DNA from: Escherichia coli
GTDB taxonomy: Bacteria > Pseudomonadota > Gammaproteobacteria > Enterobacterales > Enterobacteriaceae
NCBI RefSeq assembly: GCF_003334255.1
Contig: NZ_QOWU01000247.1
Strand: one strand, 5' to 3'
Length of the DNA stretch: 396 nucleotides
Position 1 is the stretch's first letter. Each line of letters opens with the position of its first letter. Below, one piece after another: positions 1-373 of this stretch. The notes under the pieces are model-generated. The model searched no databases. It saw only the letters and a program-made list of their open reading frames with translations, and was not told where the DNA came from. Position numbers and translations under genes: made by a program.

Positions 1-373
1 CGCTAAACCGGGCAACGGGGTGAGGATTGCCCGATCTGCTGTTGCGTTTCGTTTCTGCCGAATTTGCGCAGTTTTTTGCGCATTTTTCATCACTGCCATC
101 ATCGCCGTAAGACTCGTCATTACTGGACTCGTCATCAGCTCCATGCGCATTTTTTTGTGCGCTTTTTTGAGTGTCAATTTGCGCACTTTTTTGCGCATTT
201 TTCTGCGCACTTTCCTCTGTATTTTTGGGGGAGTTTTTGCGCAGTTTTATGTACCGACGAGCCGTGCCATAGCAGATATTGTTCTGTCGACACCAGTCCT
301 GAAGTTTTATGCCAGTTCTGGCATGTTCGCGTCGGAATGCCTGCTCCAGTTTTTTCCAGTCCAGCTTTGCCAT
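1..373 (-). CDS. Partial CDS (N-terminal 124 codons; 3' end runs past position 1): small HTH-type DNA-binding protein with low-complexity basic/acidic linker; candidate phage or island small terminase subunit (TerS-like)
   Basis: Manual reverse-strand translation from ATG (complement of 371..373) gives 124 codons with no stop: MAKLDWKKLEQAFRREHARTGIKLQDWCRQNNICYGTARRYIKLRKNSPKNTEESAQKNAQKSAQIDTQKSAQKNAHGADDESSNDESYGDDGSDEKCAKNCANSAETKRNSRSGNPHPVARFS. Residues ~20-43 fit a helix-turn-helix pattern (helix, N-I-C-Y-G turn, TARRYIK helix). Codon choice (CTG Leu, AAA Lys, GCG/GCA Ala, CGC Arg) looks like a real enterobacterial-type gene. The frame is also open upstream of the ATG to the window edge, so the true start could lie beyond 396. 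The terminase assignment rests on remembered similarity only. Confidence 0.6.
   Translation of the reverse strand, partial: MAKLDWKKLEQAFRREHARTGIKLQDWCRQNNICYGTARRYIKLRKNSPKNTEESAQKNAQKSAQIDTQKSAQKNAHGADDESSNDESYGDDGSDEKCAKNCANSAETKRNSRSGNPHPVARFS
65..88. repeat. Two tandem units of palindromic hexamer TGCGCA followed by a T5-6 run (12-bp period)
   Basis: TGCGCA at 65..70 and 77..82, each followed by a T-run (72..77, 83..87). Read directly from the sequence. Confidence 0.85.
111..135. repeat. Exact 10-bp direct repeat GACTCGTCAT x2 with 15-bp period
   Basis: GACTCGTCAT at 111..120 and 126..135. The period is 5 codons, in frame with the minus-strand CDS, and encodes the duplicated D-E-S in the acidic segment (DDESSNDESY). 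Confidence 0.9.
144..250. repeat. Degenerate array of (T/G)GCGCA hexamers each followed by a T-run, about 11-13 bp period
   Basis: TGCGCA at 144..149, 180..185, 192..197, 204..209, 238..243, plus variant GTGCGC at 157..162. T-runs at 150..156, 163..168, 187..192, 198..202, 211..213, 222..226, 234..238, 245..248. A specific hexamer is expected about 0.1 times in 400 bp; 7 exact copies are seen across this array and the one at 65..88. Confidence 0.85.
309..324. repeat. Inverted repeat ATGCCAG-tt-CTGGCAT (7-bp arms, 2-bp spacer)
   Basis: 309..315 ATGCCAG is the reverse complement of 318..324 CTGGCAT. It lies inside the region coding the HTH-like N-terminus. Function unknown; a 7-bp inverted repeat in 400 bp could arise by chance. 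Confidence 0.5.

Follow-up and report, generated by a model that had tools for sequence, protein, structure and literature searches.

A hexamer array in linker-coding DNA of the small terminase gene as a candidate pac site in a 933W-like Escherichia coli prophage

A stretch of 396 nucleotides from Escherichia coli (contig NZ_QOWU01000247.1 of assembly GCF_003334255.1; hereafter the window) encodes on its minus strand a peptide segment in which basic, K/Q/A/N/S-rich repeats are followed by an acidic block, and the question raised by this locus is whether the repeats are a feature of the protein or the trace of a feature of the DNA. The minus-strand open reading frame (ORF) is the small terminase gene, terS, of a 933W-like or Shiga toxin (Stx) phage-like short-tailed E. 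coli prophage. Viewed as protein, the segment is unremarkable, a predicted disordered linker within a terminase. The DNA that encodes it carries a bipartite array of TGCGCA hexamers, and on our analysis these are, on balance, probably binding sites for the helix-turn-helix (HTH) domain of the small terminase subunit (TerS), which would make the array a candidate pac site, or part of one, inside linker-coding DNA, as P1 pac lies inside pacA.

The hexamer TGCGCA occurs seven times in the window (starting at 65, 77, 144, 180, 192, 204 and 238) compared to 0.34 copies expected, with none of 200 shuffled sequences reaching seven. Tandem Repeats Finder detected 12-nt periodic arrays at 63-87 and 178-213. 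Cluster A, which starts at the last turn of the HTH-coding DNA, consists of five hexamers (144-149, 180-185, 192-197, 204-209 and 238-243) set in A-rich spacers, together with a shifted variant at 158-163 (AGCGCA on the coding strand). Its spacings, including the variant, are 12, 12, 22, 14 and 34 nt, and it encodes the LRK and xAQ/NAH peptides. Cluster B consists of two hexamers (65-70 and 77-82) 12 nt apart, in register 0, encoding Cys-Ala (KCAKNCAN). Every E. coli-clade variant had this cluster, with 1-2 hexamers and a spacing of 12 or 24 nt. The last hexamer of cluster A and the first of cluster B are separated by 67 nt, centre to centre, both in the window and in GER2. Successive sites 9-14 bp apart would lie on roughly the same face of the helix. 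Within the 62-kb genome of Escherichia phage PhiR12_3, 32 copies of TGCGCA were counted, seven of them inside 180 bp at terS, and this is the densest hexamer cluster bar one tandem repeat.

The hexamer is read in three codon registers, with C-TG-CGC-A giving LRK, xxT-GCG-CAx giving SAQ, NAQ and NAH, and TGC-GCA giving CA; LR/VR is a register product among the relatives as well. The basic Lys and the Asn residues are encoded by the A-rich spacers seen in the E. coli clade. Synonymous positions were conserved along with the motif. Among 14 lineage representatives, counted without regard to kinship, Ala in the arrays was encoded by GCG in 63 of 67 cases compared to 21% elsewhere in the same genes, and the codon before Ala ended in T in 63 of 67 compared to 22% elsewhere. 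The residue preceding Ala-Gln was of nine kinds (T, S, N, P, A, I, F, V and D). Aeromonas prophages (phiARM81mr-like), whose TerS is ~40% identical, likewise have this array behind an HTH of this kind. It also follows such an HTH in Salmonella phage SPF_0923 and, with the HTH on a different TerS body, in Klebsiella phage Kpn_R1-type prophages and E. coli phage vB_EcoS-673R7. With the Klebsiella type as seed, HTH searches yielded near-identical HTHs for the most part.

These data bear directly on the proposal, made in an earlier note on this DNA, that the K/Q/A/N/S segment is a peptide repeat whose number could tune linker length. A purely protein-level disordered linker, with repeats generated by slippage and a functionless DNA motif, would account for the low predicted local distance difference test score (pLDDT) across the segment, for the tandem 12-nt periodicity and for copy numbers that differ by 9- or 12-nt units among close relatives. 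However, the hexamer stays invariant where the residues it encodes differ (xAQ with at least nine residues at x, CA, LR/VR), it does so in three registers and at irregular spacings, and arrays are retained where the proteins are 40% identical and where the TerS body is a different one. The peptide-level reading fails on this spread of registers, on the fixation of GCG and of the T-ending codon, and on the varying residues, and we regard a purely protein-level origin as distinctly unlikely. The variation in repeat number foreseen in the note does occur, in units of 9 or 12 nt; a changing number of DNA sites explains it better than an adjusted protein length would.

A further pattern in the arrays concerns the helix that precedes them. 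Helix 3 of the N-terminal HTH domain, the putative recognition helix (YGTARRY, residues 35-41; window 251..271, minus strand), was assigned from AlphaFold2 secondary structure, with the codon for Arg39 at window 257-259. Across 176 unique 5' terS segments, again counted without regard to kinship, residue 39 (R or K) co-varied with base 5 of the hexamer (C or A). The 103 variants with an ARRY helix 3 contained 3-8 copies of TGCGCA and 0-1 of TGCGAA, and the 59 variants with AKRY or AKRH, which include Yersinia phages, many enterobacterial prophages and Pasteurella phage Pmp11, contained 3-9 copies of TGCGAA and 0-1 of TGCGCA. TGCGAA in the AKRY types was read in two registers, CE and xAN/xAK. 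Other helices were accompanied by other motifs: the ARTR helix of Stx phages by four cGATCATgaaat units (GATCAT; peptide IDHE/TDHK) followed by 1-2 TGCGCA, and the AIRKR (AIRKRAKK) helix of the RCIP0098 family by 3-10 copies of GTACGCA, in two clusters and two registers, with growth by 12-nt units. R and K types were interleaved in a tree built from residues 1-37 only, and pairs 84-89% identical over residues 1-37 differed in residue 39 and motif alike. IMG/VR was also scanned in the opposite direction, from three TGCGCA set close together to the sequence before them. Of 120 sampled arrays, 41 came shortly after an (A/V)RR(Y/H)(I/L/V)K helix encoded by the same ORF, and an AKRY helix preceded none.

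Several loci showed further arrangements. In the terS gene of Stx2 phage P13374 (L003, 3165-3206) and in other Stx phages, the four 12-nt cGATCATgaaat units replace the upstream array and each holds a GATC Dam site; another locus of the Stx type (L022) has five such units. A Klebsiella prophage terS of the RCIP0098 type (L294) carries a second cluster of five tandem 12-nt KSTQ units at gene nt 228-276, and its total of 10 GTACGCA compared to the typical seven indicates ongoing copy-number change. In the AKRY enterobacterial loci (L182-L209; for example 620-769 of L201), TGCGAA half-sites also occur head to head as a palindrome, TGCGAATTCGCA (peptide ANSQ), with a strong predicted hairpin (z -6.0). 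Viral contigs from metagenomes (L396-L399, L408 and L418; GC content 0.41-0.46) encode ORFs of ~169 amino acids with an unrelated-looking HTH (...SYRATAKKFGVSDNTVKKI) and, immediately after it, three TGCGCA read in registers 0 and 2 (CNENAQIAQKCAEKK), which hints that the arrangement of HTH plus array extends to other families.

The distal hexamer of cluster B (65-70) is also the start of a 26-nt island, TGCGCAAATT(C/T)GGCAGAAACGAAACG (window 45..70, minus strand), that was near-invariant, with one C/T position (GER2), in a DNA alignment of seven mosaic terS variants of the E. coli clade. The sequences on both sides of it are of alternative types, and the island could be a recombination junction or a functional core. 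This flanking by alternative types, and the terS gene of PhiR5_2, which joins an Stx-type N-module to a PhiR12_3-type downstream part, would be expected if hexamers and island were mere homology patches for the mosaic recombination of lambdoid terS modules. Homology patches, however, give no account of a distinct motif for each HTH type, of arrays of 3-10 copies or of their persistence in distant genera, and motifs of six bases are too short for homologous recombination. We consider this explanation the least probable of those weighed here, one that merits scarcely any credence.

The palindromic form of the hexamer raises the further possibility of an RNA or single-strand structure, in which UGCGCA hairpins in the terS mRNA, or terminator-like antisense hairpins with T-runs, would affect translation, stability or antisense transcription. 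The mRNA of the window folded better than shuffled sequences (z -4.3 and -4.5), and six terminator-like hairpins were counted on the antisense strand compared to 1.3 expected. The folding was, however, not kept together with the array, with z of -0.75 in Aeromonas, +1.0 in Pasteurella, +0.55 in Yersinia and -0.05 in RCIP0098. In addition, neither TGCGAA nor GTACGCA is self-complementary, the T-runs arise from A-rich spacers that only the E. coli clade has, and there was no Rfam match over terS and its upstream region. A role in RNA structure is thus very improbable, and the RNA hairpin was rejected as a conserved feature because z was near zero or positive in clades with non-palindromic motifs. 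The antisense hairpins themselves consist of TGCGCA pairs followed by T-runs (window 65-82 and 144-209, plus strand; 5164-5332 of locus L001).

From the motif and its association with helix 3, we infer that TerS binds the hexamers and that the array is all or part of the pac of a presumably headful phage. The core sites would be the TGCGCA hexamers of cluster A (five perfect and one shifted) and cluster B (two), with a spacer of ~60 bp between them. Several HTH domains of a TerS oligomer would bind hexamers about one helical turn apart, and the TerS-bound array would mark the concatemer for the first cut by the large terminase subunit (TerL), which might fall in the spacer or close to the conserved 26-nt island. 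The xAQK basic peptide, the Cys pair and the LRK tripeptide would be by-products of the hexamer in its three codon registers, and a structure-free linker would tolerate the overlap with a site array, whatever peptide results.

The hexamers might also be bound by TerS, or by another protein, for a purpose other than packaging, such as autoregulation of the late genes from within terS or another DNA transaction. The same co-variation of motif and HTH fits this explanation, and there is a precedent for regulatory side-roles in the pac repeats of SPP1, which overlap the promoters of the terminase operon (PMC4737164). Headful phages nevertheless depend on a pac site, which usually lies in terS. Transcription of the lambdoid late operon comes from far upstream with Q antitermination, and given such Q-dependent late transcription a site within the coding region would be a poor operator. 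Binding sites unconnected with pac therefore seem unlikely, although we give them somewhat more weight than the other rivals.

Comparison with described packaging systems places the candidate pac site within a known kind, pac formed from repeated hexamers inside terS. As summarised in PMC10028697 (after Sternberg & Coulby 1987), P1 pac is a 161-bp element inside pacA in which hexamer clusters HEX4 and HEX3 flank the cut site; it is disabled by synonymous recoding (PMC10028697). Taken from that summary, the likeness to the window lies in two hexamer clusters with a spacer between them inside a small-terminase-type gene, four plus three in P1 and five to six plus two here, and in the four GATC-containing units of the Stx-phage relatives, which recall the Dam-regulated pac of P1. 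The RCIP0098 family is likewise two-clustered, as in P1-type pac. The direct repeats of SPP1 pac span the start of the small terminase gene (PMC4737164), and SPP1/SF6 (pacL, pacC, pacR; G1P) resembles the present system in having repeats at that gene and, as would be predicted here, N-terminal HTH domains that are flexibly tethered to an oligomeric ring, and the phased A-rich DNA suggests bending or wrapping. It differs in that the SF6 HTH shows little specificity, whereas here a recognition-helix residue tracks a motif base, which suggests direct readout. The sites also lie downstream of the HTH-coding part here, in linker-coding DNA, and the protein families differ, with no Pfam Terminase_2 match for the TerS of the window.

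A pac embedded in the terS ORF of a headful enterobacterial phage, the arrangement proposed here, is also found in P22 (gene 3), Sf6 and Gally, a P22-like E. coli phage for which a pac peak was placed inside termS (PMC9928086). The TerS folds of that group are unrelated to the present one. P22 pac is a single asymmetric sequence of ~22 bp, with no array, and differs in this from the window. The cosB site of lambda is similar to the proposed array in its multiple short R-elements, bound by the N-terminal HTH of the small terminase (the winged HTH of gpNu1) beside the cut site. Lambda, however, is a cos system and not headful, with IHF-dependent sites outside coding sequence. What is new here, as far as can be determined, is a set of candidate sites in three registers within DNA encoding a predicted disordered linker, placed beside the putative cognate HTH, with a correspondence of one residue to one base and portable between TerS scaffolds.

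Several points weigh against the candidate pac site. Codon 39 lies only ~15 nt upstream of the first hexamer, and the co-segregation of residue 39 and motif may in part reflect this physical linkage. The co-variation counts carry no phylogenetic correction, cluster B of Stx-type genes retains 1-2 TGCGCA although their helix 3 differs (ARTR), and a Vibrio relative (21-25% identical) is without an obvious array. Unlike those of P1, the hexamers of the window contain no GATC, the sole GATC of the window lying outside the array at 33-36, and the spacer, again unlike P1, gave no IHF-like site when searched with WATCAANNNNTTR at up to one mismatch. In SF6/SPP1, binding of the TerS HTH to pac repeats is weak and shows little preference for sequence (PMC4737164); the repeats of a pac region may serve without base-specific readout. 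A literature search returned no binding or packaging-start data for this phage family. Searches of the literature also returned no described pac site for 933W-like phages, no TGCGCA arrays and no PhageTerm data on Stx phages, and there were no virion-end data for these phages in the database records or literature searched. The boundaries of GenBank records that fall in or close to terS were rejected as packaging ends, since they look conventional rather than measured, and a P1-like Dam/IHF architecture was rejected for the window as there is no Dam site in the hexamers and no IHF match.

A broader reading, which we put forward tentatively as plausible and a little short of probable, is that the ~45-residue HTH of TerS is a portable packaging-specificity cassette, always carried with its own cognate array in the same ORF, inside the disordered-linker codons and in three registers, pairing Arg39 with TGCGCA, Lys39 with TGCGAA and other helices with GATCAT or GTACGCA. 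HTH and site would move as one unit because they are only ~15 nt apart. On this reading the cassette would be spread over 933W-like podoviruses, siphoviruses of Klebsiella, Salmonella and E. coli, Yersinia myoviruses, and prophages of Pasteurella and Aeromonas, on unrelated TerS bodies.

The protein context of the array was examined with an AlphaFold2 model of full-length TerS built with a 16-sequence alignment. The N-terminal domain (residues 1-44; window 242..373, minus strand) was predicted as a three-helix HTH (helices at residues 6-20, 24-30/31 and 35-41) with pLDDT 76-89, and gave a mean pLDDT of 81.6 when modelled alone. Foldseek searches of this domain against PDB returned HTH DNA-binding proteins as the best matches (IstA, DeoR-operator, Spo0J-parS and HipB), none of them significant (E >0.1), and the full TerS model matched generic helical hairpins in PDB with nothing significant. 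Residues 45-152 had pLDDT <50, with 10-residue block means of 27-44, so that the low-confidence stretch extends beyond the window, in which residues 45-124 are encoded at 1..241 (minus strand) with gappy, variable alignment columns. Beyond it the model forms a long helical-hairpin core with pLDDT up to 95, predicted to be the oligomerisation core. Homologues of TerS range from 268 to 298 amino acids with indels concentrated in the linker segment, and nearly all variation in length and sequence fell in the linker. The model thus supports the charge-segregated segment as a predicted disordered linker between the N-terminal HTH and the helical core, in agreement with the earlier note, and the homologue comparison showed the most variable part of TerS rather than a conserved domain.

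The charge segregation described in that note, basic and then acidic, was confirmed by the translation and charge counts, with small errors of numbering. The basic block SAQKNAQKSAQIDTQKSAQKN comprises residues 55-75 (window 149-211) rather than 56-76 (146-208), A76 having been omitted, and contains four K/R and one D/E for a charge of +3. The acidic block (HGADD...SDE) had been located correctly at window 86..145 (minus strand), in the inter-cluster spacer; it is HGADDESSNDESYGDDGSDE, residues 77-96, with no K/R and nine D/E for a net charge of -9. Residues 97-110 return to +3 with four K/R and one D/E. A run of nine acidic residues uninterrupted by K/R arose in 667 of 100,000 shuffles of residues 45-110 (0.7%). 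The range given for the Cys block, 62-85, holds for KCAKNCAN only, and the longer EKCAKNCANSAE spans residues 96-107 (window 53-88). The suggestion that the Cys pair of CAKNCA is a by-product of the hexamer in register 0 proved sound, with one Cys in GER2 and none in the Aeromonas relatives. The acidic block keeps its composition and varies in sequence within the E. coli clade and is absent in the Aeromonas and AKRY clades, which points to a protein-level compositional feature specific to the E. coli clade. A role for it as electrostatic partner of the basic HTH and linker is speculation only.

The window covers codons 1-124 of the 283 codons of terS (1..373, minus strand), with the ATG at 373-371 and the ORF leaving the end of the window; its translation includes ...SAQKNAQKSAQIDTQKSAQKN-A-HGADDESSNDESYGDDGSDE-KCAKNCANSAE... 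Among the long ORFs in the window, homologues were found for the minus-strand one only. Escherichia phage PhiR12_3 (PV340552, 30591-30986) matches the whole window at 100% identity, and its terS counterpart (coding sequence 30614-31465, 100% identity) is followed by terL and the portal gene. Prophages carrying the window at >=99% identity were present in 17 complete E. coli genomes. Partial matches came from 429 of 5426 E. coli genomes and from 222 phage records, the majority of them of Stx-converting phages. The full-length product in matching records is 283 amino acids, annotated as terS or terminase in Stx phages, and matches PHROG 370 'terminase small subunit', the 933W/Sepvirinae type (E 7.4e-118; residues 1-283 over 284 profile positions); Pfam, NCBIfam and PDB sequence searches with TerS gave no useful match. 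The gene lies downstream of the lysis cassette and directly upstream of terL, which it overlaps, with the portal gene beyond. The terL record of a matched phage bears the note 'T4-like headful', and 933W is reported as a generalized transducer with probable terminal redundancy (PMC3752737).

A plus-strand ORF at 20..385 (121 amino acids, F/L/C-rich) was rejected as a gene, being the antisense shadow of the A-rich coding strand of terS. A second frame, shifted by one from terS, is open from ~250 to the end of the window (1-250, minus strand; ...NCAKTPPKIQRKVRRKMRKKVRK...), with low-complexity sequence devoid of stop codons as the likely cause. Elsewhere in PhiR12_3 (PV340552, 21501-22081), a perfect 7-nt tandem repeat, GACCAGC x83 with 100% matches, separates the Q antiterminator gene from the late genes, at the place of stx in Stx phages, and the coding sequence annotated over it is probably spurious.

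The analysis nominates a candidate pac site of ~200 bp for 933W-like phages, which perform generalized transduction and have relatives that carry Shiga toxin genes, and offers a pairing, readable in sequence, of a terminase recognition helix with its DNA motif. It also presents a case of overlapping codes in which an array of DNA sites shapes a low-complexity peptide, and repeats in a linker are not automatically features of the protein. Knowledge of the site would help to predict which plasmids, islands and chromosomal regions can be packaged by such phages. If the cassette is real, it would allow pac specificity to be predicted and re-programmed from sequence alone, including in the medically important Stx phages.

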